In this document: positions 13,804 through 26,735 of the stretch, one piece after another | Position numbering within the stretch: the stretch's first letter is position 1 | Layout: every line of letters begins with the position of its first letter | Origin: an uncultured Planctomycetia bacterium | Lineage (GTDB): Bacteria; Omnitrophota; Gorgyraeia; 2-02-FULL-51-18 | Assembly (NCBI GenBank): GCA_964606485.1 | Contig: CAZSGP010000001.1 | Span: 353,085-417,084, forward strand | Direction: 5' to 3' | Length of the DNA: 64,000 bases | Program-made: the position numbers and the translations under genes | Notes under the pieces: model-generated | Databases searched by the model: none | The model's input: only the letters and a program-made list of their open reading frames with translations | What the model was told of the DNA's origin: nothing

Positions 13804-14760
13804 ATGTTTGTTGATGAAGCCATTATCAATTGCACTGCAGGACGCGGAGGAAACGGGTGTCAAAGCCTAGACCGCAGTCGTCCGGGTCATTATAAGCCGA
13901 CTGGAGGGGACGGGGGAGGTGGCGGATCGATTATCATTGAAGCGCAGGCCAACATTCAAACGCTTCTGGATTTTCAGCTCAGCCGTACCTTTGAAGCCGA
14001 AAAAGGCAGTAATGGTTCGAGCAGCAACAAGCGCGGATTTTGCGGTCAAGACCTGATTTTGGGGGTTCCGCCGGGCACCGAGGTTTTTGATTACGGGACG
14101 GGGGAATTTTTAAAGGATCTAGATAAAATTGGCACGCGAGTCATAGTCTGTAAAGGCGGCGAACCGGGGCACGGCAATCATAAAAATGCTGATGCGACTC
14201 CCGGCGGCTTGGGCGAAGTTAAAGACATTCAGCTTAAACTAAAATTAATCGCTGATATCGGAATTATTGGTTTTCCCAACGCCGGCAAATCAACGTTTAT
14301 TTCTAGAGTTTCCAACGCGCGTTCGAAGTCTGCAGCGTACCCGTTTACCACGAAAAGCCCAGTATTGGGTGTGGTAAAATTTAACGATGGAGAGAAGGTT
14401 CTGGTGCTAGCGGATATTCCAGGAATTATTGAAGGGGCCCACGAAGGGCGGGGTTTGGGAATTGAATTTTTAAAGCACGTCGAACGCACCAAGGTGCTTT
14501 TACACATCATCGACTTTGCGTGTTTTGACGGAAGAGACCCGGTTTCGGACTATAAGGCCATCAACAATGAATTGAAAAGTTATTCGGAGAAATTAGCGGC
14601 AAAACCTCAGATCATTTGTGCGAATAAAATGGATGTACCGGAAGCCGAAGAAAATTTGAAAAAATTTAAGAAAAAAATTAAAAAGCAGGTGTTCCCGATC
14701 TCTGCAGCAACGGGAGAGGGGCTTGAAAAACTTTTATTTAAATTGCGAGACTCTGTATGA
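13804..14760 (+). CDS. obg: GTPase Obg (short form, no C-terminal OCT domain)
   Basis: Obg fold with Gly-rich GGDGGGGGS. G1 GFPNAGKST and G3 DIPGIIEGA motifs. Confidence 0.9.
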   Translation: MFVDEAIINCTAGRGGNGCQSLDRSRPGHYKPTGGDGGGGGSIIIEAQANIQTLLDFQLSRTFEAEKGSNGSSSNKRGFCGQDLILGVPPGTEVFDYGTGEFLKDLDKIGTRVIVCKGGEPGHGNHKNADATPGGLGEVKDIQLKLKLIADIGIIGFPNAGKSTFISRVSNARSKSAAYPFTTKSPVLGVVKFNDGEKVLVLADIPGIIEGAHEGRGLGIEFLKHVERTKVLLHIIDFACFDGRDPVSDYKAINNELKSYSEKLAAKPQIICANKMDVPEAEENLKKFKKKIKKQVFPISAATGEGLEKLLFKLRDSV

Positions 14761-15599
14761 GGATGGAATATTTAAAAGGACTGCGCAACATCGTCGTCAA
14801 GGTGGGCACATCCGTTTTATCTAAAAACGGGCGCTTTGATGAAAAGGCGATCGAGCGTTTGTCCGGGGAAATTGCAACGCTTCTTAAGAGCGGCGTTAAA
14901 ATTTCGATTGTGAGCTCCGGGGCTATTGGAGCCGGAATGACGATTTTAAAATTAAAAGAGCGGCCCGCTCAAATGCGCGAGCTTCAGGGATCGGCTGCGG
15001 TAGGACAGCGCTACCTCATGCAGTGCTATGAAAAAGCGTTTTCGAAAAAAGGCTTTTCGACGGCGCAAGTTCTGCTGACTTGGGACGATATGGCCAATGA
15101 AAAACGCTATCTCAATGCGCGACACACGTTAAAACAGATTCAGGACTGGGGAATTGTGCCGGTGGTGAATGAAAACGACACCGTAGCAACCGATGAAATC
15201 CGTTTTGGAGACAACGACCGTCTATCCAGCCTTTTGTCGATTTTAATTGAGGCGGACTGTCTTGTGATTTTGTCAGACACCAATGGGCTTTACGCTGGAG
15301 GCAAAGAGCGCCTTGAAAAAAATCGACTCAAAATAATCGAGCGGGTCGACGATGAAATTTTTGGCCATGTTCAGGAAAGCCGTAGCGCGCTGACGGTCGG
15401 GGGAATGGGCGCCAAGCTCAAATCCGTCTATACGGCGACCGCGTCAGGAATTCCGGTGATCTTAGCGGATGGACGTGAAAAAAACATACTCGGAAAAATA
15501 TTTAAAGGTGAGGACGTCGGAACATTTTTTAAGCCGGAGTCCCGGAAAGCGCGCGCGCGTTCCTGGTCTGAGAATTTTGCGGAGCATGTGAAGCGATGA
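14757..15599 (+). CDS. proB: Glutamate 5-kinase (no PUA domain)
   Basis: IVVKVGTSVLS, SSGAIGAG and amino-acid kinase fold. ATGA overlap with obg. Confidence 0.9.
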   Translation: MRMEYLKGLRNIVVKVGTSVLSKNGRFDEKAIERLSGEIATLLKSGVKISIVSSGAIGAGMTILKLKERPAQMRELQGSAAVGQRYLMQCYEKAFSKKGFSTAQVLLTWDDMANEKRYLNARHTLKQIQDWGIVPVVNENDTVATDEIRFGDNDRLSSLLSILIEADCLVILSDTNGLYAGGKERLEKNRLKIIERVDDEIFGHVQESRSALTVGGMGAKLKSVYTATASGIPVILADGREKNILGKIFKGEDVGTFFKPESRKARARSWSENFAEHVKR

Positions 15600-16840
15600 A
15601 CGCTCAAAAAACGGCCGAACTTTCTAAAAAGGCCTCACACGCTTTGTCGCTGGTTTCACCCGGCGCCAAACAAAATGCGTTGGTGGCCATGGCGAAGAGT
15701 TTAGCCGCTCATCAAGCGCTTATTTTAAAAGAAAACGCTAAAGATGTAATGTCAGCGCGTAAAAATGGACTCGCCCAGAGCCTCATTGGCCGCCTTGAGC
15801 TAGACGAATCTAAAATTAAAAAAATGGCCGAGTCGCTACTTCTCATTTCAAGACTTCCGGACCCCGTGGGGCGCGTGATTTCTCAAACCAAACGCCCCAA
15901 TGGCCTATTGATCAAAAAAGTAGGCGTGCCGATCGGCGTCATTTTGATTATTTATGAATCGCGTCCGAATGTGACCACGGACTGCATGGCGCTGTGTCTT
16001 AAGTCGGGCAATAGTGTTATTTTAAAAGGGGGCAGTGAATCGCTCCGCTCCAATCAGGCGCTTTTTAGTGTGCTGAGCAAAGCCGCTTACAGCGCGGGCA
16101 TTCCAAAAGACGCTTTTTCGCTGGTTGCCCAAGGCGGCCGTGAAACCGTTAAAGAGCTTTTACAGTTAAACGAACAGATTGATCTTGTGATTCCTCGTGG
16201 AGGGGAAGGGTTGATTCGCGAGGTGGCGCAGATTTCAAAGATTCCGGTGATCAAGCATTACAAGGGTATCTGTCAAGTTTTTGTGGATCGGGATGCAAAC
16301 CTTAAAAAAGCTGAAGCTATTGTTTTGAACGCAAAGGTGCAGAATCCAGGCGTGTGCAACGCGATGGAAACATTGCTCGTTCACGAGGCCGTGGCGCAAA
16401 AATTCCTTCCGGTAATCTGTGAATCGCTTCGCGATAAAGGCGTCAAAATCCGCGGCTGTGATAAAACGCGCAAAGTTGTTTCTGGACTTGAAAAGGCGAC
16501 GGAAGAGGACTGGGCGACGGAATACCTGGACCTAGTTCTCTCAATTCGCGTGGTGAAAAATTTAAATGAAGCGATGGCGCATATTCACAAATACGGCTCG
16601 CAACATTCTGACGCCATTGTGACCGAAAATAAAAAAGCCGCAGAACTTTTTACCCAAACCATTGATAGCGCCTGTGTATTTGTGAACACGTCCACCCGCT
16701 TTAACGACGGGGGAGAGTTTGGAATGGGCGCTGAGATGGGAATTTCGACCGACAAACTGCACGCCCGCGGGCCGATGGGGCTTGAAGAGCTGACTTCCTA
16801 CAAATACGTTGTCGAAGGCAGTGGTCAAGTCCGCTCGTAA
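15596..16840 (+). CDS. proA: Gamma-glutamyl phosphate reductase
   Basis: Aldehyde dehydrogenase-like fold with catalytic Cys context VCNAMETLLVH. Coupled to proB. Confidence 0.9.
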   Translation: MNAQKTAELSKKASHALSLVSPGAKQNALVAMAKSLAAHQALILKENAKDVMSARKNGLAQSLIGRLELDESKIKKMAESLLLISRLPDPVGRVISQTKRPNGLLIKKVGVPIGVILIIYESRPNVTTDCMALCLKSGNSVILKGGSESLRSNQALFSVLSKAAYSAGIPKDAFSLVAQGGRETVKELLQLNEQIDLVIPRGGEGLIREVAQISKIPVIKHYKGICQVFVDRDANLKKAEAIVLNAKVQNPGVCNAMETLLVHEAVAQKFLPVICESLRDKGVKIRGCDKTRKVVSGLEKATEEDWATEYLDLVLSIRVVKNLNEAMAHIHKYGSQHSDAIVTENKKAAELFTQTIDSACVFVNTSTRFNDGGEFGMGAEMGISTDKLHARGPMGLEELTSYKYVVEGSGQVRS

Positions 16841-16841
16841 G

Positions 16842-17357
16842 ATGCGGATCGGGATTTTTGGAGGCAGTTTCAACCCCGTCCACGAGGGGCATCTGGTCTT
16901 AGCCCGAAATGCTTACGACGCGCTCAATCTCGAACGCGTGATTTTTGTCCCGTCCTATCAAACACCGCTCAAAGATCCGAACGTTTTATCGAAGCCAGCA
17001 GAGCGCATTCAACATTTAAAAAAAGCTCTTACGCTGTACCCTTATTTTTCAATTTCACTGTGTGAGGTTGAGCGAAAAGGGGTGTCTTACACGGTTGACA
17101 CGCTGCGGTATTTCAAAAAAAAGTTCGGGGCGGACGCTGTGTTGTTTTTTTTAACGGGAGCTGATACCCTACAGTCACTTCGGAAATGGAAGTCGCTTGG
17201 TGAGATCCGGAAACTCTGCCATTTTGTGGTGGCCAGTCGTCCGGGGTACCCCTTAAAGACGCCGTCTTGGGCGCTGGCGCTTCCGATGGATGCGAAGGAT
17301 ATATCCTCAACAAGGATTAGGAGAAAAAAATCGAAAACAACGAAAAAGTCCGCTTAG
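16842..17357 (+). CDS. nadD: Nicotinate-nucleotide adenylyltransferase (C-terminally short)
   Basis: MRIGIFGGSFNPVHEGHL carries the (H/T)xGH motif and ISSTRIR the ISST motif. The protein ends 11 aa after ISSTRIR, whereas typical NadD extends ~25 aa further. The 3' end overlaps the rsfS frame. Confidence 0.8.
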   Translation: MRIGIFGGSFNPVHEGHLVLARNAYDALNLERVIFVPSYQTPLKDPNVLSKPAERIQHLKKALTLYPYFSISLCEVERKGVSYTVDTLRYFKKKFGADAVLFFLTGADTLQSLRKWKSLGEIRKLCHFVVASRPGYPLKTPSWALALPMDAKDISSTRIRRKKSKTTKKSA

Positions 17358-17395
17358 TCTGCGAAGCAGGGTACGAAAAAAAAGCCGACGACATC

Positions 17396-17689
17396 ATGAT
17401 TATGGAAATGAAAAGCAAAACGGCTTTTTGTGATTATTTTGTGGTGATGAGCGCGCCATCCACGGTGCGCGTGAAATCTATTTGTGATTTCATCGAAGAC
17501 ACGATGAAGGGTGAGGGGCATGCGCTGCAACACAAAGAGGGCTATCAAGACGGCCTGTGGGTGCTGCTCGACTTTGGAGCGGTGATCGCGCATGTTTTTA
17601 TTCAGGAAACGCGCGGGTTTTACGACATTGAAAATTTGTGGGGCGATGTTCCTAAGAAGCCCTATCTAGCCCATGAGCGAAAGCGTTAA
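17396..17689 (+). CDS. rsfS: Ribosomal silencing factor RsfS (Iojap family); annotated from first ATG but homology extends ~20 codons upstream with no canonical start
   Basis: DYFVVMSAPSTVRVKSICDFIED...GLWVLLDFGAVIAHVF matches RsfS. The in-frame upstream translation EKVRLVCEAGYEKKADDIMIM matches the RsfS N-terminal helix. Confidence 0.75.
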   Translation: MIMEMKSKTAFCDYFVVMSAPSTVRVKSICDFIEDTMKGEGHALQHKEGYQDGLWVLLDFGAVIAHVFIQETRGFYDIENLWGDVPKKPYLAHERKR

Positions 17690-19355
17690 AACAAGTCTCG
17701 CCAAAGCGCTTGCGAGCGCTCTGAAAGAATCGCTCGGCGAAGAGTTTTCGCTCGCGATGCTTGAAAATTCTCTCGAAGCCCCGAACGAAGAAAAATTCGG
17801 CGATCTTTCGACCAACGCTATTTTTAAAATTGCCAAAGAGCGCAAGAAAGCGCCGCGAGCACTCGCCGAAGAAATTTCGAAGAAAATATCGACCGGTGCC
17901 ATCAAAGAAAAAATTGAAAAGATTGCGGTTGAAGGCCCCGGGTTCATTAATTTCTACTTCTCCCAAAACGAAATTTCATCTGTTCTCTTAAATATCCGCA
18001 AAGAGGGGACACAATTCGGAAAACCCAAGAATTTTAAAGCCAAAAAAATCCTCTTAGAATACGTGAGTGCCAATCCGACCGGACCGCTCACCGTGGCGCA
18101 TGGCCGCCAGGCGGCACTCGGCGATTCGCTGGCGCGGATTTTAAAATTCTGCGGACATGAGCTTCATCGCGAGTACTACAACAATGACGAGGGTGTTCAG
18201 ATTCAGACGCTGGGGGAGTCGCTCAACCTGCGCATCGAAGAAATCATTGAAAACAAAAAGAAAGAACTCCCTGAAAATTTTTACAAGGGTGAGTATTTGA
18301 TCGCCATTGCGCAGGAATTCTTAAAAGAGTTCCCGGTCGAGAAATACAAAGCGCTTTCGATGGCGGAGAAGCTGGAAAAGTGCCGCGCTTTTTCGCGCGA
18401 ACAAATTTTAAAAGACATTCAAAAGGACTTGAAAGAGTTTGGAGTGGATTTTGACCGTTACTATAGCCAGGCGAGTCTCATGAGATCGGGTCGGGTCGAG
18501 TCGACGCTCGAAGAGCTTAAGAAAAAAGGATTTGTTTATGAGAATGAGGGTGCTGTGTGGCTCGCGTCCACAAGACTGGGCGACGACAAGGACCGCGTGC
18601 TGATTAAAAGTGATAAGACGTATACGTACCTCACGCCGGACATCGCCTACCATCATGAAAAATTTGAGCGCGGCTTCGAGAAGCTGATTAACATTTTAGG
18701 GCCGGATCATCATGGCTATATTGCCCGTTTAAAAGCCTCTCAGCAGGCGCTAGGCCACAATCCCGATGAGGTGCAGGTGCTGATTGCGCAGCTTGTGACG
18801 CTTTATGAAGACGGCAAGCAAGTGCGCATGTCGACAAGGGCGGGGGAGTTTGTGACGCTCCGAGAAATTTTAGACGAAGTGGGTTGTGATGCGGGCCGCT
18901 TTTTCTTTTTGATGCGCAAATTTGATGCGCACTTGGATTTTGATTTGGGCTTGGCCAAAAGCCAGACACCGGACAATCCGGTTTTTTACATTCAGTACGC
19001 ACACGCGCGCGTGGAAAGTGTGAAGCGAACTTACGCCGAGCGCGTCGAAGCATTCGACTGGAACAAGGTGAACGACTTGTCGCCTCTCAGCGATCCGCTT
19101 TCAGTTAAAATCATGCGGCTCTTGAGTCAGTTTGAGGACGCCGTTGTGGATGCTGAGCGCACACTTGAGCCTTACCGCCTGGTTCCGTATCTCATGGAAC
19201 TTGCGGCCAACTTCCACCGCTTCTACACCGAAAACCGCGTGGTGGGAGAGCCGAAGAACGTGGCTGAAGCGCGTCTAGCGCTGATGAGCGCCATTCAATC
19301 CGTGATTGCCTCGGGTTTAAGACTGCTCGGGGTCTCCGCACCGCTTAAAATGTAA
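17673..19355 (+). CDS. argS: Arginine--tRNA ligase
   Basis: Class I motif variant LEYVSANPTGPLTVAHGR and KMSTR-like VRMSTRAGE. Length 560 aa. Confidence 0.9.
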   Translation: MSESVKTSLAKALASALKESLGEEFSLAMLENSLEAPNEEKFGDLSTNAIFKIAKERKKAPRALAEEISKKISTGAIKEKIEKIAVEGPGFINFYFSQNEISSVLLNIRKEGTQFGKPKNFKAKKILLEYVSANPTGPLTVAHGRQAALGDSLARILKFCGHELHREYYNNDEGVQIQTLGESLNLRIEEIIENKKKELPENFYKGEYLIAIAQEFLKEFPVEKYKALSMAEKLEKCRAFSREQILKDIQKDLKEFGVDFDRYYSQASLMRSGRVESTLEELKKKGFVYENEGAVWLASTRLGDDKDRVLIKSDKTYTYLTPDIAYHHEKFERGFEKLINILGPDHHGYIARLKASQQALGHNPDEVQVLIAQLVTLYEDGKQVRMSTRAGEFVTLREILDEVGCDAGRFFFLMRKFDAHLDFDLGLAKSQTPDNPVFYIQYAHARVESVKRTYAERVEAFDWNKVNDLSPLSDPLSVKIMRLLSQFEDAVVDAERTLEPYRLVPYLMELAANFHRFYTENRVVGEPKNVAEARLALMSAIQSVIASGLRLLGVSAPLKM

Positions 19356-21259
19356 TGTTCCCCACGCTCGAGTTTTATGCGGGCAAAGAAATTGATTTTG
19401 ACGCGCTTGCTAAAAACCTCGTAGAACTCGGATACTCCCGCAACACTCAAGTCGGTCAGCCGGGGGACTTTGCCATTCGTGGTGGAGTGGTCGATGTTTT
19501 TCCTTCTCATTATGCGCTTCCGGTGCGCGTCAGTTTGTATGGCGACGTCGTCGAACACATTCACACCTTTGATCCATCCTCCGGACAAAATTTAGAGCCG
19601 CATCAAATGGTGATTATCACCTCTACCAAGTTGCGCCGCGGCGGTCAGCGTCATGAGTTGCCGGCTGTGATGAATCCGAATGATTACGGGGAACCGGTGG
19701 ATCCATTTGTGGATTTGGAGCCGGGGGATTACGCCGTCCACATTATTCATGGGATTGCGCGGTACAAGGGCCTGAAACACTTTCGCGGAAAAGGCGTCAA
19801 AAAAGAAGATTGTTTGACTCTCGAATTTGCCGGCCATGACGTGCTGTATGTTCCCATGAAAGACTTGCATCTCGTGTCTCGTTACCGGGCATTTGGAAAA
19901 ATGCGCCCGGCCTTGTCGAAGCTTGGCTCAAAATCCTGGGAAAAATTAAAAAATAAAACTCAAGAAGGCGTGTTTTCGTTTGCCGGGGATCTTTTGAATT
20001 TGCAGGCCAAGCGCCAGGCGCTCGAAGGCTACCGTTTTCCAAAAGACACCGATTGGCAGAAACGCCTGGAAGATGAATTTCCCTACGACGAAACGCCGGA
20101 TCAGGAAAAAGCCTGTGAGGATGTAAAAGAAGATATGGAAGCGAAGACTCCGATGGACCGCCTGCTTTGCGGGGATGTGGGATACGGCAAAACCGAGGTG
20201 GCTTTGCGCGCGGCGTTTAAGGCGGTGACGGCCGGAAAGCAAGTAGCCATTTTGGTGCCGACAACCATTTTGGCGGAGCAGCATTGGAACACGTTTCGGA
20301 AACGCCTAAAAAATTTTCCGGTCGAAATTCAAATGCTTTCGCGTTTTCAAACCAAGTCCCAACAGGACAAGACCGTTCAGGCGGTAAAAGAGGGGGCTTG
20401 TGACATTGTGATCGGGACGCACCGGCTTCTTTCAAAAGACATTGCATTTAAAGATTTGGGACTGCTCGTGATTGATGAAGAGCAGCGCTTTGGCGTGCGG
20501 CACAAAGAAAAATTAAAAAGTCTCAGACTGCTCGTGGATGTTTTGACACTCACCGCGACGCCGATTCCCCGCACGCTTTACATGGCGCTTGTGGGCGCGC
20601 GGTCGATGTCCAACATCAACACGCCCCCTAAAGGTCGCCAAGCGGTGAAGACGGTGGTGACGGACGGCGGAGAAAAAATTATCGCCGAAGCCCTGAACCG
20701 GGAGCTTGAACGCGGAGGACAAGCCTTTTTTATTCATAACCGCGTGAATGGAATTGAAATGATTGCCGCTAAAATCAAGAAGCTAGCGCCTCGCGCACGG
20801 ATTGCCGTGGGGCATGGGCAAATGCGCTCCAAAGATCTTGAAAAAGTAATGCAAAAATTCATTAATGGCGAAATCGACGTGCTCGTTTCGACGACGATTG
20901 TTGAGTCGGGCATTGACATCCCCAACACCAACACGCTGATCATTAACCGGGCGGATTTGTTCGGTTTATCCGAGCTGTACCAACTTCGGGGCCGGGTGGG
21001 GCGCTTTGACCGAGAGGCCTACGCCTACATGCTTGTCCCGAAACACGCGGTGCTGACGTCGGAATCCCGCAAGCGTTTAGAGGCCATTGAAAAATTTGCG
21101 TATCTGGGTTCTGGATTTCATATTGCCATGCAGGATCTGGAGATTCGAGGTGCGGGAAATATTCTCGGAACCGAGCAAAGCGGGTACATCGCCACGGTGG
21201 GCTTTGATCTGTACTGCCGCATGCTCAAAGAGACGGTTAAGAGGCTATCCGAGAAGTAG
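19355..21259 (+). CDS. mfd: Transcription-repair coupling factor Mfd, minimal form (end of D1b, RNAP-interacting domain, translocase D5/D6 with TRG motif; no D1a/D2/D3 and no D7)
   Basis: GDFAIRGGVVDVFP ... RVSLYGDVVEHIHTFDP (D1b-like). RID reads EPGDYAVHIIHGIARYKGL...LYVPMKDLHLVSRY. Helicase motifs GDVGYGKTEVA, DEEQRFGV, TATPIPRT and TRG GFHIAMQDLEIRGAGNILGTEQSG. 634 aa versus ~1150 aa typical. Confidence 0.85.
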   Translation: MFPTLEFYAGKEIDFDALAKNLVELGYSRNTQVGQPGDFAIRGGVVDVFPSHYALPVRVSLYGDVVEHIHTFDPSSGQNLEPHQMVIITSTKLRRGGQRHELPAVMNPNDYGEPVDPFVDLEPGDYAVHIIHGIARYKGLKHFRGKGVKKEDCLTLEFAGHDVLYVPMKDLHLVSRYRAFGKMRPALSKLGSKSWEKLKNKTQEGVFSFAGDLLNLQAKRQALEGYRFPKDTDWQKRLEDEFPYDETPDQEKACEDVKEDMEAKTPMDRLLCGDVGYGKTEVALRAAFKAVTAGKQVAILVPTTILAEQHWNTFRKRLKNFPVEIQMLSRFQTKSQQDKTVQAVKEGACDIVIGTHRLLSKDIAFKDLGLLVIDEEQRFGVRHKEKLKSLRLLVDVLTLTATPIPRTLYMALVGARSMSNINTPPKGRQAVKTVVTDGGEKIIAEALNRELERGGQAFFIHNRVNGIEMIAAKIKKLAPRARIAVGHGQMRSKDLEKVMQKFINGEIDVLVSTTIVESGIDIPNTNTLIINRADLFGLSELYQLRGRVGRFDREAYAYMLVPKHAVLTSESRKRLEAIEKFAYLGSGFHIAMQDLEIRGAGNILGTEQSGYIATVGFDLYCRMLKETVKRLSEK

Positions 21260-21297
21260 AAAATGTGGTATATTGCTTCAAACTTAGGAAAAAAATA

Positions 21298-22134
21298 ATG
21301 AACAGAATTAAATTTTTAGGCGTACTCGTCGGAGCCATTCTTTTGAGCGGTTGTTTCGAGCAGGTTTCAGACACAAGCCCTAAGGTCGCAACGTTTAAAG
21401 ATGGCGCGATCACAGCGCAACAGTTTAAAAATAGAATCAGCGGACTTCCAAAGGAAGTGAAAGCGGCTGCTCTTCAGCGAAAAGCCGACTTCGTCAATGA
21501 AATGATCGATGAATTCTATCTCGAAAAAGAAGCTAAAAAACGACGCATTGAAGAGGATGCTGACGTCAAAGCACTGTTTGCGGAAGCGCGCCGAAAAATC
21601 ATTATTGCGAAATTGGTGGAAACGGAAATCGACAAAAAAATCAGCATTCAACCGGACGACGCTCAAAATTTTTACGATTCCAATAAAGAAAAGTTTATGA
21701 CTCAGCTCACTGTACGGGCGTCTCACATTTTGGTTAAAACAGAAGACGAGGCACGGGGTGTTCTCGCGAAGCTTCAGGCCGGAGCGGATTTTGAGCAGTT
21801 GGCGCGCGAGAAATCGATTCATCGCTCGGCTGCTGCGGGTGGGGATATCGGATTTTTTTCGAAGGGGCAATTGATCAAGGAATTTGAAGAGACAGCTTTT
21901 GAGTTGAAAAAAGGGGAGCTGAGCGGTGTGGTGAAGAGCCAATTCGGTTACCACGTGATCAAGTTGACGGATCGCATTGAGCCATCCTTAAAGAGCTTTG
22001 AATCGGTGAAAGGTTTGATCGAGAGGCAGCTTTTAAATGAGAAAAAGGCCAAGCTCTTTAAAGGTTTTACTGCTAGCTTGCGCCAGAATGTGAAAGTGGA
22101 CCTTGATGAGAAAGCTCTCGAAAACGTTTCGTAA
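21298..22134 (+). CDS. PpiC/parvulin-type peptidyl-prolyl isomerase lipoprotein (SurA/PrsA-like)
   Basis: Lipoprotein signal LLSGC and parvulin domain ASHILVK...FGYHVIK. Internal ATG with RBS; the track GTG start at 21265 overlaps a -10-like TGGTATATT. Confidence 0.7.
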   Translation: MNRIKFLGVLVGAILLSGCFEQVSDTSPKVATFKDGAITAQQFKNRISGLPKEVKAAALQRKADFVNEMIDEFYLEKEAKKRRIEEDADVKALFAEARRKIIIAKLVETEIDKKISIQPDDAQNFYDSNKEKFMTQLTVRASHILVKTEDEARGVLAKLQAGADFEQLAREKSIHRSAAAGGDIGFFSKGQLIKEFEETAFELKKGELSGVVKSQFGYHVIKLTDRIEPSLKSFESVKGLIERQLLNEKKAKLFKGFTASLRQNVKVDLDEKALENVS

Positions 22135-23074
22135 AGCGCTCCCCGTTATTTTTTTTACGCTGCTGGCGTTTGCGCCGGCGTGTTTTGCCGCTGATGTCGT
22201 TGAGCGGATTCTTGCGGTTGTGAATGATGAAATCGTGACCGAGCAAGATCTTCAGATTGTCATGGCCCCCGTGCTCGCCCAATACCGCACCTCTTTTTCC
22301 GGAAAAGAATACGATGAAAAAATAAAGCAGGCCCGTAAAGAATTCTTAGACAAGGTCATCGAAGATAAACTGGTCTTGAGTGAAGCCAAAAAAAGACAGG
22401 TGATTGTCAAAGACGCAGAAGTTGATGAAATGCTAGCCGAAGTTCGAAACAAATTCCCAAACCGCGACGTGTTTATCAGGGCGCTGGAAGACCAAGGGCT
22501 CACCGAAAAAAAATTATGGGACCGGATGCACGACCAGCTGTACTCGCAAAAACTTGTGGCGTTTGAGGTGAAGTCCAAAGTCTCAGTCTCTCCGGGGGAA
22601 GTGAGTGATTATTACAAGGCTCATCCCGAAGAGTTTGCTCAAGGCGACCGCATTCGTTTGCAACAAATCTTAATTCGACTGGGAAGTCGTACGGATGAAG
22701 AGGCTAAGGCGTTTGCGCTTTCCTTGTATAACCAGCTTAAGGCTAAAAAATCTTTCGAAGAATTAGCAAAAGCATACTCGGAGGGCTCGGAAGCCAAAGA
22801 GGGCGGCGAGATGGGTTGGATCGAAAAAGGGCAGCTCATGGGCGAGATTGACCAGAGAGTTTTTGTGCTCGAGCCCGGTGATATCACCGAACCGATCAGC
22901 ACGTCTCTGGGATACCATATTTTTAAAGTTGAGGAGCGCGAGAAATTTTCCACAAAGCCTCTGAGTGAAGTTCGAGATATGATTCAGGATAAACTTTTTC
23001 AAGACAAGCTTCGCGTTAAGCTGGACGAGTGGATTAAAGGGCTTAAAAAGAAGGCTTATATTTCAATCCGGTGA
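22103..23074 (+). CDS. surA: Periplasmic chaperone/PPIase SurA-like
   Basis: Signal peptide, SurA N-domain AVVNDEIVTEQDL, parvulin domain LQQILIR...LGYHIFKV. Upstream of pdxA-rsmA as in the proteobacterial surA-pdxA-ksgA operon. Confidence 0.7.
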   Translation: MMRKLSKTFRKALPVIFFTLLAFAPACFAADVVERILAVVNDEIVTEQDLQIVMAPVLAQYRTSFSGKEYDEKIKQARKEFLDKVIEDKLVLSEAKKRQVIVKDAEVDEMLAEVRNKFPNRDVFIRALEDQGLTEKKLWDRMHDQLYSQKLVAFEVKSKVSVSPGEVSDYYKAHPEEFAQGDRIRLQQILIRLGSRTDEEAKAFALSLYNQLKAKKSFEELAKAYSEGSEAKEGGEMGWIEKGQLMGEIDQRVFVLEPGDITEPISTSLGYHIFKVEEREKFSTKPLSEVRDMIQDKLFQDKLRVKLDEWIKGLKKKAYISIR

Positions 23075-24033
23075 GGATCGGGGTAACACTTGGGGACATT
23101 GCCGGAATCGGCCCTGAAGTCGCGTTAAAAAGTCTGGAACAAATCACTACTGGGTCAAAATTTTTTCTTCTAGGCCCCGAATCTTTTTACCGCGCGCTTG
23201 CCAAAAAACTAAAATTAAAAAAAGTGACCGCTCTTTTTGGGCGGTCTGTTTTTTTTGATGACACGGTTACGCTGCCGTCGCGGTGGCGGTACGGAGCGTC
23301 CCAAAATGAATTGTCTGTGCTCGCCGTGCGTTCCATTGAGCAGGCGGTAAAGTTAGCGCTTTGCGGAAAAATAGATGCCATTGTCACTCCTCCCATCAAC
23401 AAAGCAGGGGTGAAAGCGGCGGGTTTTGATATCCCTGGGCATACGGAGTATTTGGCTAGGCTTTCAGACACTCGAAAATTCGAAATGATGCTCGTGGGTG
23501 GACCTTTGCGCGTAACACTCGTGACGCGGCATACTCCGATCAAACACGTTTCGACTGAGCTTACCCAAAAACGTGTGATTGAAACGATTTTAATGACCGA
23601 TCAAGAATTGCGAAAATCGTTTGGAATAAAAAATCCAAAGCTTGTGGTCTGTGGTTTGAATCCTCATGCGGGTGAAAAAGGGCATATTGGAAATGAAGAA
23701 ATTAAAATCATAGAACCTGCGGTGAAAAGGGCTCGGCAATTGACTCGTTCAAAAATTATCGGCCCGCTTGCGCCGGATACGGTGTTTTACGGGGCCTATG
23801 CAGGGGAGTATGATGCCGAAATTTGCATGTATCATGACCAAGGTCTTATTCCGCTCAAAATGATTTCGCGGGGTGGCGGCGTGAATGTGACGCTGGGCCT
23901 TCCATTTGTGCGCACGTCGCCCGATCACGGAACGGCGTATGACATAGCCGGACGCGGCGTGGCGGATGCGGGGTCAATGACGGAAGCATTGGCGCTTGCA
24001 ATGACGCTGGCCCGCAATAGAAATAAAAAATAA
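23071..24033 (+). CDS. pdxA: 4-hydroxythreonine-4-phosphate dehydrogenase
   Basis: MRIGVTLGDIAGIGPEV, GHTEYLA and TSPDHGTAYDIAGRG are the PdxA signature blocks. GTG start. Confidence 0.9.
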   Translation: MRIGVTLGDIAGIGPEVALKSLEQITTGSKFFLLGPESFYRALAKKLKLKKVTALFGRSVFFDDTVTLPSRWRYGASQNELSVLAVRSIEQAVKLALCGKIDAIVTPPINKAGVKAAGFDIPGHTEYLARLSDTRKFEMMLVGGPLRVTLVTRHTPIKHVSTELTQKRVIETILMTDQELRKSFGIKNPKLVVCGLNPHAGEKGHIGNEEIKIIEPAVKRARQLTRSKIIGPLAPDTVFYGAYAGEYDAEICMYHDQGLIPLKMISRGGGVNVTLGLPFVRTSPDHGTAYDIAGRGVADAGSMTEALALAMTLARNRNKK

Positions 24034-24875
24034 TGAATCTCACTCAGGAAGCCAAGTCTAGTCTCTCCAAGCTCGGCGTTCACGCGCGAAAAAAATGGGG
24101 ACAGAATTTTATGGTGTCCGTGGAAGCTTTGACGGCGATTACCGACGCGTTGAAGATCGTCCCGGGTGAGACCGTTCTTGAAATTGGCCCGGGGCTTGGA
24201 TTTTTAACACGGAATCTTTTGTCGAAAGCTTGTCGGGTGATCGCTGTGGAGTACGATCCGCTGATGATTCAACACTTGCAATCCATGTTTTCTGAAAAAA
24301 AACCCGAGCTTTTTCAGGCTGATTTTCTGAAGTTTGATTTTAAAAAAGAACTATCCCTCACGGAGCCGGTGAAGGTGGCTGGCAATATTCCGTACAACAT
24401 TACGAGCCCCATTTTAGAACGACTCATTGAGCAGCGTGAATGGGTGTCGGAGGCAGTGCTCACCGTTCAAAAAGAAGTGGCCCAGCGGCTCGCTTCAAAG
24501 CCGGGGACTAAGCAGTGGAGTGCGCTGTCGATTTTTGCACAGGTGTACGCAAAAGTGGAAGTCGTGGGAACGATCGGAAAAGAGTCATTTTTTCCGGCGC
24601 CTAAAGTGGATTCGGCAATCGTTAAGTTTGTATTTTCTAGAGAGCCGCTCGTTGCGGTAAAAGACAGTGAGCTTTTTTTTCAGATTGTCCGTAAGGCGTT
24701 TCAAAAAAGACGCAAAACAATTTTGAATGCGCTGGCGGACGAATCGTCAAGGATGTTCGCCAAGGCGCTTGTTGGCAATGCGCTCAGACGCGCTGAAATT
24801 GATCCTATCCGACGTCCAGAGACCCTTTCGCTGGAAGAATGGGCTTTACTGTCCGACCAGTTAGCGTTGTTTTAA
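24033..24875 (+). CDS. rsmA: 16S rRNA (adenine1518/1519-N6)-dimethyltransferase RsmA/KsgA
   Basis: GQNFMV, SAM site VLEIGPGLGFLT and VAGNIPYNITSPIL. Confidence 0.9.
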   Translation: MNLTQEAKSSLSKLGVHARKKWGQNFMVSVEALTAITDALKIVPGETVLEIGPGLGFLTRNLLSKACRVIAVEYDPLMIQHLQSMFSEKKPELFQADFLKFDFKKELSLTEPVKVAGNIPYNITSPILERLIEQREWVSEAVLTVQKEVAQRLASKPGTKQWSALSIFAQVYAKVEVVGTIGKESFFPAPKVDSAIVKFVFSREPLVAVKDSELFFQIVRKAFQKRRKTILNALADESSRMFAKALVGNALRRAEIDPIRRPETLSLEEWALLSDQLALF

Positions 24876-24903: not shown

Positions 24904-26073
24904 ATGGATGCTCTAATACACTCAGGCGCCGCGATTCATGCGCTGTGGACTTTTCCGGCGATTATTCTGGCGGCCCTTCTAATTGCCTGGGCGGCGGAAT
25001 GCGGCCAATTTTATATTTCCCAAGGTTTGGCCCTAGCGGTTTTGGCGTGGGTGCAGACGCTTCCGGAATTTGCTGTGGAAGCGGTGATCGCTCTCGGCGC
25101 CGCTAAAGACCCTTCTCAAATGCACTTGGTCACCGCGAATTTTACGGGGTCACTCCGGCTTTTTGTGGGATTTGGCTGGCCCATGGTTTACTTTGTAGCC
25201 GTGTTATGGGGCAAAAGGCCTAAAGGCGCTCAGAAGCGCTGGTGGACCATTGAAATGGAAGACGAGCACTCGATTGCCGTACTCTCGCTCTTACCCGCGC
25301 TGATTTATTTCCTATTTATTTATTTAAAGGGGACGCTGACGGTTTGGGACAGCGTGGCGCTCGGCTTTATTTATTTTATTTATTTGTTCCTGCTTTCAAG
25401 AATGCCCGCTCAAGAACAAGAGGGGGTAGAGGATCTGTCGCGTATTCCTAAGGCCATTATGAAGGCCAAGCCCCCGGCGAATTATTTTTGGATACTCGGT
25501 TTTTTTGTGGCAGGCGCCTTAATACTTTGGTTTTGTGCACACCCCTTCTTAGAGTCGATGTTGGGGCTTGCGGTGTCAATGGGGGTGTCTCAGTTTGTAT
25601 TTGTGCAGTGGATGGCGCCGTTCTTAAGTGAATTTCCTGAAAAACTGTCGGCGTTTCACTGGGCGAAATCCGGAAAGGCGCCGATGGCGCTTGTGAATTT
25701 TGTGTCGTCATCAATCAATCAATGGACGATTCTGGTGGCGACGGTACCGGTGATTTATTCATTCGGAGTGGGGCACGTGGCGCCCATCCAGTTTGACAGC
25801 CATCAAAGACTTGAGATTTTACTCACGATCACGCAATCGTATCTTGGATTTTTATTTTTACTCGGCATGGATTTTGCGGCGGTGGAGGCTATTGGTCTTT
25901 TTGTGTTGTGGCTCATTCAATTTTTAGTCCCGGGTGTGCGTGAGGAAATTGTTTATTTCTATGCGCTTTGGATTGTGGTGGAAACGACGCGCTTTGCTTG
26001 GAACTATAAAAAACGCAACGCGTTCAATGTTTTTGGGGGTCTCGTCCGGGAAAAGCTGTTTAAGAAACGCTGA
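24904..26073 (+). CDS. Polytopic membrane protein, possible divergent cation/Ca2+ exchanger (CaCA)-like with two internal repeats
   Basis: About 10 TM helices. Two halves each carry a G-x-x-x-x-x-x-x-(L/F)PE(F/K) block (QTLPEFAVEA; LSEFPEKLSA) reminiscent of CaCA alpha-repeats. Weak assignment. Confidence 0.3.
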   Translation: MDALIHSGAAIHALWTFPAIILAALLIAWAAECGQFYISQGLALAVLAWVQTLPEFAVEAVIALGAAKDPSQMHLVTANFTGSLRLFVGFGWPMVYFVAVLWGKRPKGAQKRWWTIEMEDEHSIAVLSLLPALIYFLFIYLKGTLTVWDSVALGFIYFIYLFLLSRMPAQEQEGVEDLSRIPKAIMKAKPPANYFWILGFFVAGALILWFCAHPFLESMLGLAVSMGVSQFVFVQWMAPFLSEFPEKLSAFHWAKSGKAPMALVNFVSSSINQWTILVATVPVIYSFGVGHVAPIQFDSHQRLEILLTITQSYLGFLFLLGMDFAAVEAIGLFVLWLIQFLVPGVREEIVYFYALWIVVETTRFAWNYKKRNAFNVFGGLVREKLFKKR

Positions 26074-26735
26074 TGTTTAAGAGCGTTCAAAAAACTCTCA
26101 CCAACGCTGGAATTGTTTTTGTTCTGGTTCTCATTTTCGCTTTTGGCGTCAAATTTTTTCAAGAATTTCTCACCTTTCGTAAAATTATCCATAATTTAAA
26201 GGCCGAATCCCGCATTGCCGAAGTGCTGGTCACCGAATCCAGCATCGACGAGTACACGCGCAAGTACACGACGACGATTAAATTTTTGGAATACGACGTG
26301 AAGGGCAAGCCGATGAAGGCGAAATACTTTACCTTTAAAGGCAATTTGATTCAGTTTCAGACGCTGGTGGTGCGATTTGATGACAAATACATCGAGCAAG
26401 GCAATCGCATGAAAGGAAAGAGCATCTACCTCTTTTTGAAGGCATTCGTGCTGGACGGCAAGGACACGCAGGAATTCGAAATTACGCCGACGGCGGAAGT
26501 CCCGGGTGGGTACAAAACTTCAGAGACACCGTCGCGCTTCGAAAAAGAAATTTGGCAAAAATTCTGGAAGGTGGCGCTGGATCCTGACCAGCGCAAGCAA
26601 GTGGGCATTAAAAACGCGCAGATTGAAGCGCCGGGCTCTGTGTTTGTGCCGGGCACGATTTACACGCTGATCATCGAGCATGATGGGGGAATTCGGATTG
26701 ATACGAGGCCGATTCCGGAGATATTGAAGAACTAA
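26073..26735 (+). CDS. Hypothetical protein with N-terminal TM anchor
   Basis: ATGA overlap with the upstream gene. One N-terminal TM helix, then a ~190 aa soluble domain with no recognised motif. Confidence 0.4.

Follow-up and report, generated by a model that had tools for sequence, protein, structure and literature searches.

The window analyzed here is a 64-kb stretch of contig CAZSGP010000001.1, which derives from a metagenome-assembled genome placed in the phylum Omnitrophota in the GTDB taxonomy. Its forward strand carries a gene (mfd) for a short form of the transcription-repair coupling factor Mfd. The protein is composed of D2, a disordered linker, the domain that interacts with RNA polymerase (RID, or D4) and the two motor domains D5 and D6, and it lacks D1a, D1b, D3 and D7. 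We are nearly certain that this arrangement is a conserved architecture of the lineage. What was lost is the lid (D7) together with the scaffold (D1a, D1b and D3); the UvrA-binding domain that they masked and carried has been kept.

Membership of the Mfd family is evident from the NCBIfam equivalog model TIGR00580 (mfd), whose cutoff of 800 bits is exceeded by the protein's score of 879.7 bits. Other models are failed by wide margins, including NF007966 / PRK10689 for full-length E. coli-type Mfd (652.3 bits, cutoff 1329), the UvrB models (68-75 bits, cutoffs ~745, with the match confined to amino acids 5-91) and the RecG models (at best 410.9 bits, cutoff 718, in the motor region only). Both the best PDB sequence matches and the top Foldseek fold matches are Mfd proteins, the latter represented by crystal and cryo-EM structures.

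An earlier note on this DNA, made from the sequence alone, had taken the N-terminal segment GDFAIRGGVVDVFP...HTFDP for the end of D1b, and had proposed a coordinated loss of D2 and D7 that would prevent recruitment of UvrA by the canonical D2 contact. The segment is instead the core of D2. Pfam places PF17757 (UvrB_inter) on amino acids 6-90 with an E value of 4.2e-24, and phmmer aligns amino acids 8-85 without gaps to residues 131-208 of E. coli Mfd. When the N-terminal 118 amino acids serve as query, the D2 chain of PDB 4DFC (93 residues, from the core Mfd-UvrA complex) is matched over its positions 8-87 by amino acids 5-84, and the same query also finds the 106-residue UvrB interaction-domain chain 3FPN_B. 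D2 supplies the UvrA-binding surface of Mfd (PMC7835731). An alignment check for D2 residues, which the earlier note itself had named as capable of overturning its claim, therefore finds the domain present and under purifying selection, and the argument against UvrA recruitment loses its basis. What had been described as loss of the UvrB-homology module holds for D1a and extends to D1b, but not to D2. The absence of D3 and D7 is borne out, as is the description of the protein as a minimal Mfd.

The remainder of the protein matches expectations from the earlier note, which had recognized the RID and a complete translocase with the translocation in RecG (TRG) motif; PF02559, PF00270 and PF00271 are all present. 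The counterpart of amino acids 117-631 in the alignment with E. coli Mfd is 473-986, and the last residue of the protein corresponds to ~989, just past D6, again as had been noted. Within this region, D4 aligns to E. coli residues 473-547, and position 143, which is aligned to E. coli L499, is hydrophobic in 47 of 48 homologues. In all 48 of these sequences the following elements are invariant: W195 (the equivalent of E. coli W550), G273-T280 with the sequence GDVGYGKT, D374-Q377 (DEEQ), motif VI (QLRGRVGR), R598 and Q608. No TRCF (D7) domain family was found in the protein by Pfam. D1a and D1b are likewise absent, as evident by the fact that D2 begins at Met1 and only 26 residues separate it from the RID. 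This linker varies from 14 to 40 amino acids among the 48 homologues, with a column conservation of 0.32 compared with 0.63-0.80 elsewhere.

In the domain map attributed to Deaconescu and colleagues (2006), E. coli Mfd is reportedly divided into D1a (1-119), D2 (127-213), D1b (214-349), D3 (350-472), D4 (473-547), D5 (548-780), D6 (781 to ~990) and D7 (to 1148), and the alignments of the short protein agree with these limits. A structure prediction by AlphaFold2 (AF2) from the alignment of 48 sequences has a mean predicted local distance difference test (pLDDT) score of 73, with D2 folded confidently at values of 74-88 and amino acids 94-115 predicted to be disordered at values below 50. A helix is predicted for amino acids 193-221, in the relay helix region. 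The coordinates of the domains and of the principal neighboring genes are listed in Table 1.

Table 1. Short mfd gene, its encoded domains and selected neighboring genes, with positions counted from the first nucleotide of the window (aa, amino acids; PPIase, peptidyl-prolyl isomerase)
Feature	Position	Strand	Remarks
Short mfd gene, 634 aa plus stop	19355..21259	+	D2-linker-D4(RID)-D5-D6
D2, aa 1-90, UvrA-interaction domain homologous to UvrB domain 2	19355..19624	+	PF17757 UvrB_inter
Linker, aa 91-116, K/R/P-rich, variable, where D1b and D3 would stand	19625..19702	+	
D4 (RID), aa 117-190	19703..19924	+	PF02559 CarD_TRCF_RID aa 121-177, E 1e-14
Relay helix and D5 (TD1), aa 191-424	19925..20626	+	PF00270 (DEAD) aa 247-408; Walker A GDVGYGKT, DEEQ
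D6 (TD2), aa 425-634, TRG motif and hook helices, protein end	20627..21256	+	PF00271 (Helicase_C) aa 445-551
argS, complete, 560 aa	17673..19355	+	Pfam Arg_tRNA_synt_N, tRNA-synt_1d, DALR_1
Two SurA-like PPIase genes	21265..23074	+	Pfam; directly 3' of mfd
uvrA, 937 aa	26834..29647	+	PF17760 UvrA_inter aa 137-244, E 2e-38; PF17755; ABC ATPase domains

Gene boundaries and search for the missing domains

The position of the gene between its neighbors leaves no room for an extension at either end. As stated in the earlier note, the open reading frame starts at the argS stop, where the mfd ATG and the argS TAA share bases in the sequence TAATG. An in-frame stop lies two codons 5' of the ATG (the stop-to-stop frame covers 19349-21256), and an N-terminal extension of the protein is therefore ruled out. 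Furthermore, the DALR_1 match by Pfam runs to the final residue of ArgS. Because argS is complete and its stop overlaps the mfd start, there is no space for an upstream D1a. At the other end, the first PPIase gene starts 6 nucleotides past the mfd stop.

We searched for the missing modules with profiles built from 142 full-length relatives, using as targets the six-frame translations of the window and of 65 loci from other genomes (see below). The D7 profile recovered all five full-length control loci at E values of ~1e-30 and gave no match in the 64-kb window or in 60 Omnitrophota-type loci. The D3 profile also recovered five of five controls. Within the short proteins it gave weak matches located in the RecA domains; their per-domain E values exceed 0.08, and we dismissed them. 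No match to D1a was found in the window with a profile that detects three of five controls. The D1b profile, which found none of the five controls, also gave no match in the window, and this result carries no weight. A tblastn search of the window with E. coli D1a, D1b, D3 and D7 yielded nothing below an E value of 0.5.

A complete uvrA gene, which the earlier note had also reported, is located 5.5 kb downstream of mfd. Its UvrB/Mfd-binding domain is intact, and its product is the presumed partner of the D2 of the short Mfd. A 220-amino-acid open reading frame (26073-26735, + strand) without a Pfam match at E <= 1e-4 lies between uvrA and a gene of the Na/Ca-exchanger family. In the interval that follows mfd (21265-24875), the two SurA-like PPIase genes are joined by pdxA and an rRNA adenine dimethylase gene of the rsmA/ksgA type. 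This order echoes the surA-pdxA-rsmA operon of E. coli. On the 5' side (14757-19355), genes for a proB-like kinase, a proA-like dehydrogenase and a nadD-like cytidylyltransferase precede argS in a dense array, in which several start and stop codons overlap, consistent with a streamlined genome.

Distribution and orthology of the short form

A search space of 5.8 billion proteins contains at least 120 clusters of the short form, with lengths of 600-716 amino acids and 56-71% identity to the protein examined here; the one exception in length has 508 amino acids. All of the listed clusters carry PF17757, PF02559, PF00270 and PF00271, except for this 508-residue member, which has no D2 match. Clusters that bear a source name are assigned to Candidatus Omnitrophica/Omnitrophota, and an independent Logan assembly contains the very same protein. 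Two cluster representatives depart from the rule at the N terminus. The 508-residue protein (P0088) lacks a UvrB_inter match at 80% query coverage and is probably a fragment, and a 716-residue protein (P0075) carries an N-terminal extension of ~80 amino acids that probably reflects a start-codon call.

With an alignment of the D2-linker-RID region as query, we scanned a set of genomes in which each GTDB species is represented once, and this returned 65 loci. The match takes in nearly the whole of query residues 1-200 at 58 of these, and two others are truncated by the end of a contig. The truncation is thus common to orthologs in related genomes, at 60 species-level loci as well as in the protein clusters, as the earlier note had suggested might be checked. 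Five loci (L062-L066, from Syntrophorhabdaceae and others) encode full-length Mfd and served as controls. The gap between D2 and D4 measures 15-52 amino acids in the 60 related loci, compared with 186-189 in the controls. Similarly, the tail past the motor is 0-25 amino acids in most of the 60 loci, with exceptions that include contig-truncated and interrupted genes, versus ~153 amino acids (D7) in the controls.

With two exceptions, the 60 related loci are labelled Ca. Omnitrophota/Omnitrophica or belong to third-party annotation (TPA) bins labelled 'uncultured Planctomycetia/Planctomycetales'. Many of the latter (L002, L004, L006, L007 and others) have argS upstream of an Omnitrophota-type short mfd whose product shows 47-57% identity at the N terminus, and their taxonomic labels probably lag behind phylogeny. 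The exceptions are L059 (DYOU01000026.1, Candidatus Elulimicrobium sp., given by NCBI as Patescibacteria group) and L045 (JAAYZZ010000122.1, labelled Elusimicrobia), both of which carry a short D2-RID Mfd. Either the architecture reaches beyond Omnitrophota or these bins are mislabelled. In two further loci the mfd frame is interrupted (L052, 6812-8128; L061, 2461-3780), leaving stop-to-stop frames of 439 and 440 amino acids that could result from frameshifts, assembly errors or pseudogenes.

The nearest relatives outside the short family are full-length Mfd proteins of 1000-1390 amino acids. Among the best 150 representatives at 50% clustering, two are short (642 and 640 amino acids) and nearly all others are full-length Mfds of ~1000-1390 amino acids, including proteins from NPL-UPA2 and Verrucomicrobia. 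PPIase homologues lie 3' of mfd in most Omnitrophota-type loci on sufficiently long contigs and also in controls L062-L066; in the Syntrophorhabdaceae controls a PPIase pair follows the full-length gene. Because this neighbor is found downstream of both the short mfd and full-length mfd of other phyla, the short gene is an ortholog that has lost domains rather than a paralog.

D2 as a candidate UvrA-binding domain and competing explanations

In E. coli Mfd, residues R165, R181 and F185 were proposed as UvrA contacts by homology with UvrB, and coupled repair is lost when all three are replaced with alanine (Manelyte et al., PMC3025350). The same residues are given as UvrA-binding in a separate report (PMC13453472). 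We compared the D2 domains of 48 members of the short family with those of 143 full-length relatives, and found that two of the three contacts are kept. The equivalent of R165 (R42) is arginine in 44 members, lysine in three and histidine in one, and the equivalent of R181 (R58) is arginine in all 48. Column conservation across the 48 homologues is 0.63 for D2, 0.32 for the linker and 0.72 for the RID, and the difference between D2 and the linker indicates that D2 is under purifying selection. Since D7 is gone, UvrA is the only known partner able to constrain R42 and R58.

Other features of the domain weigh against the view that D2 serves as a UvrA-binding surface of the usual kind. The equivalent of F185, which is Y62 in the protein examined here, is mostly serine, alanine or leucine in the family, and sometimes aspartate, whereas phenylalanine or tryptophan occupies this position in 105 of the 143 full-length relatives. 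The position of Q200 is invariably glutamine in the 143 full-length proteins and is glycine in 47 of the 48 short ones. Likewise, at positions that hardly vary otherwise, the equivalent of R193 is mostly histidine in the short family, and position 206 has become an invariant histidine (H83). When D2 alone is scanned with the mfd model, the short family scores 46-53 bits and canonical D2 scores 74-79 bits. These lower scores, together with the residue changes, show that the binding surface of D2 has changed. The signature may reflect the lost contacts with D1a, D1b and D7, or it may reflect a retuned affinity for UvrA. The short family has also acquired new aromatic residues at D2 positions 8 and 53.

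The change from Q200 to glycine gives the short-family D2 a UvrB-like FDPxTG motif. This motif, along with equal E values to UvrB and Mfd, raised the possibility that D2 originated as a graft from UvrB. We rejected this origin because on UvrB models the short D2 scores 41-54 bits, similar to canonical Mfd D2 (45-57 bits) and far below true UvrB domain 2 (108-111 bits). By these scores, the domain is best described as a diverged D2 of the Mfd type.

From these comparisons, we infer that the short protein binds UvrA, is derepressed and couples repair to transcription. We estimate a probability of roughly 0.6 that this Omnitrophota mfd ortholog acts as a derepressed coupling factor through contact between D2 and UvrA. 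It seems unlikely that the protein is instead, in a modified version of the earlier note's functional conclusion, a displacement-only factor, which would free stalled RNA polymerase without coupling to nucleotide excision repair because UvrA binding by the retained D2 has decayed. Such decay would be consistent with the loss of the F185 equivalent, with the differences between the short family and the 143 full-length relatives at the equivalents of Q200, R193 and G186, and with a D2 that falls below canonical D2 on the mfd model. However, D2 remains under purifying selection relative to the adjacent linker, both of the buried arginines that UvrA binding requires persist at the frequencies given above, and uvrA retains the partner domain. 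A useless domain of 90 amino acids would also not be expected to last at Met1 throughout a phylum. Less probable again is a repurposing of D2, either as an intramolecular regulator acting on the translocase or as a binder of a partner other than UvrA, with the family-invariant residues forming the new surface. H83, G77, Y8 and F53 are invariant or nearly so in the short family and absent from full-length Mfds, and the N-terminal domains of the E. coli protein are known to touch D6 and restrain the motor (PMC3488230). Against this proposal, the linker is predicted to be disordered (AF2 pLDDT), and R42 and R58, which correspond to UvrA contacts common to UvrB and Mfd, are still the most conserved surface arginines.

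We consider it quite improbable that D1a/D1b, D3 or D7 are encoded elsewhere and assemble with the short protein in trans. The search extended over 64 kb here and at most 10 kb per side of the gene in other genomes, and the D1b profile is insensitive while that for D1a finds three of five controls, all of which leaves some space for a split gene. The sensitive D7 profile nevertheless detected nothing in the window and 60 loci, the tblastn search with E. coli modules was equally negative in the window, and the in-frame stops and neighboring genes offer no sign of remnants. Moreover, D1a and D1b flank D2 in one fold, and a split would consequently require three pieces. An assembly or annotation error, or a pseudogene fragment, might be suspected because the source is a metagenome-assembled genome and two of 60 loci (L052 and L061) are interrupted. 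This last reading is effectively refuted by the conservation data: the identical protein occurs in an independent assembly, the same boundaries recur across at least 120 protein clusters and in 60 species, and all helicase motifs are invariant.

Possible mechanism and implications

If the short Mfd acts as a derepressed coupling factor, its RID would hold it to a stalled RNA polymerase at the beta protrusion, and D5 and D6 would dislodge the enzyme by moving along the upstream duplex DNA. UvrA would be contacted at its UvrB-binding domain by the tethered D2, which would bring Uvr(A)B to the site. With D7 and the D1a/D1b/D3 scaffold gone, neither a D2:D7 clamp nor a stepwise masking of the UvrA surface in the course of loading would be possible. 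The short Mfd would then be constitutively derepressed, in the manner of engineered E. coli Mfd-deltaD7 or Mfd-deltaBHM and of native T. thermophilus Mfd, with D2 permanently exposed on a flexible tether. The controls expected to remain are the node formed by the hook and relay helix, which includes the invariant W195, and the binding of RNA polymerase; DNA wrapping by the relay helix may also persist. The changed surface of D2, including the lost F185 equivalent, the change of Q200 to glycine and H83, may lower the affinity for UvrA and offset this permanent exposure. More speculatively, once the exposed aromatic residue is gone, UvrA might be held too loosely to be sequestered.

Several findings on other Mfd proteins bear on this proposal. 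In E. coli, the UvrB-homology module is essential for enhancement of the repair rate and regulation by D7 is dispensable, as evident by the strand-specific repair that a D7-deleted Mfd still supports (PMC3025350). Autoinhibition of the E. coli protein is relieved by removing either D7 or the UvrB-homology module (PMC3488230). The UvrA surface of its D2 stays hidden for as long as loading is incomplete, first behind D7 and later behind DNA, which was proposed to guard against premature recruitment of UvrA (PMC7864632). Mfd from Thermus thermophilus is natively derepressed (PMC13453472). We regard it as possible, at slightly less than even odds, that the whole phylum carries out coupled repair with a half-size Mfd, and that a bare, tethered D2 suffices for handover to UvrA in the complete absence of D1a/D1b, D3, D7 and an occlusion checkpoint.

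All parts of the short Mfd are already known, and databases name these proteins 'transcription-repair coupling factor'. We found no published description of a short Mfd, of the D2-RID-motor architecture or of Omnitrophota Mfd in a search that covered subscription journals thinly, such that an earlier description is possible. Current models of Mfd rest on the E. coli protein, in which D7 masks D2 and large rearrangements of D1-D3 delay UvrA recruitment until commitment (PMC7864632), while a 2026 study argued against autoinhibition as a universal trait (PMC13453472). For this debate, a lineage-wide protein consisting of D2, RID and motor offers a clean test case. If the short Mfd supports coupled repair, then D1a, D1b, D3 and D7 would be regulatory additions rather than core machinery. 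The protein would in that case be a natural minimal coupling factor with which to determine which of the E. coli loading steps are essential. Structural studies would also benefit from its compact size of 634 amino acids. In the annotation of Omnitrophota genomes, a short protein called 'transcription-repair coupling factor' should not be treated as a fragment.

Comparison with known systems

Canonical Mfd, represented by the E. coli protein of 1148 amino acids (PDB 2EYQ, 6X26), shares with the short form D2, the RID, the relay helix, the superfamily 2 (SF2) translocase of D5 and D6, the TRG motif and the hook helices. Identity is ~50% over amino acids 117-631 of the short protein (tblastn), and the equivalents of R165, R181 and W550 are kept. 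In contrast, the short form is without D1a, D1b, D3 and D7, which amount to ~510 residues. Its D2 starts directly at Met1, a disordered linker of 14-40 amino acids connects this domain to the RID, and the equivalents of F185 and Q200 are changed.

More distant resemblances are found to RecG and to UvrB. RecG has a homologous translocase core with the TRG motif, as evident by scores of ~400 bits on RecG models and the presence of 1GM5 among the matches, but these scores remain far below the cutoffs, and RecG has a wedge domain where the short Mfd has D2 and the RID. UvrB domain 2, whose structure in isolation and bound to UvrA is available (3FPN chain B), has the same fold and PF17757 assignment as D2, and it functions as an autonomous UvrA-binding unit. 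Its FDPLTG sequence in E. coli resembles the FDPxTG of the short family, although the UvrB-model scores noted above (41-54 bits for the short D2, 108-111 for UvrB) set the two apart.

T. thermophilus Mfd (978 amino acids; 6M6A, 13JQ; PMC13453472) is shorter than the E. coli protein and natively derepressed, with a mobile and unclamped D2. Amino acids 119-632 of the short Mfd align to its residues 317-827, and unlike the short form it retains D1a, D1b and D7. The engineered E. coli variants Mfd-deltaD7 and Mfd-deltaBHM (deletion of the UvrB-homology module; Manelyte 2010, PMC3025350; Smith 2007, 2012, PMC1874598, PMC3488230) provide the remaining point of reference. The short Mfd differs in pairing the loss of D7 with the loss of D1a, D1b and D3 while D2 is kept, a combination that is not among the constructs described in the papers covered. 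As with the natural form, the loss of D7 removes the clamp, and E. coli Mfd-deltaD7 is itself derepressed and retains strand-specific repair.

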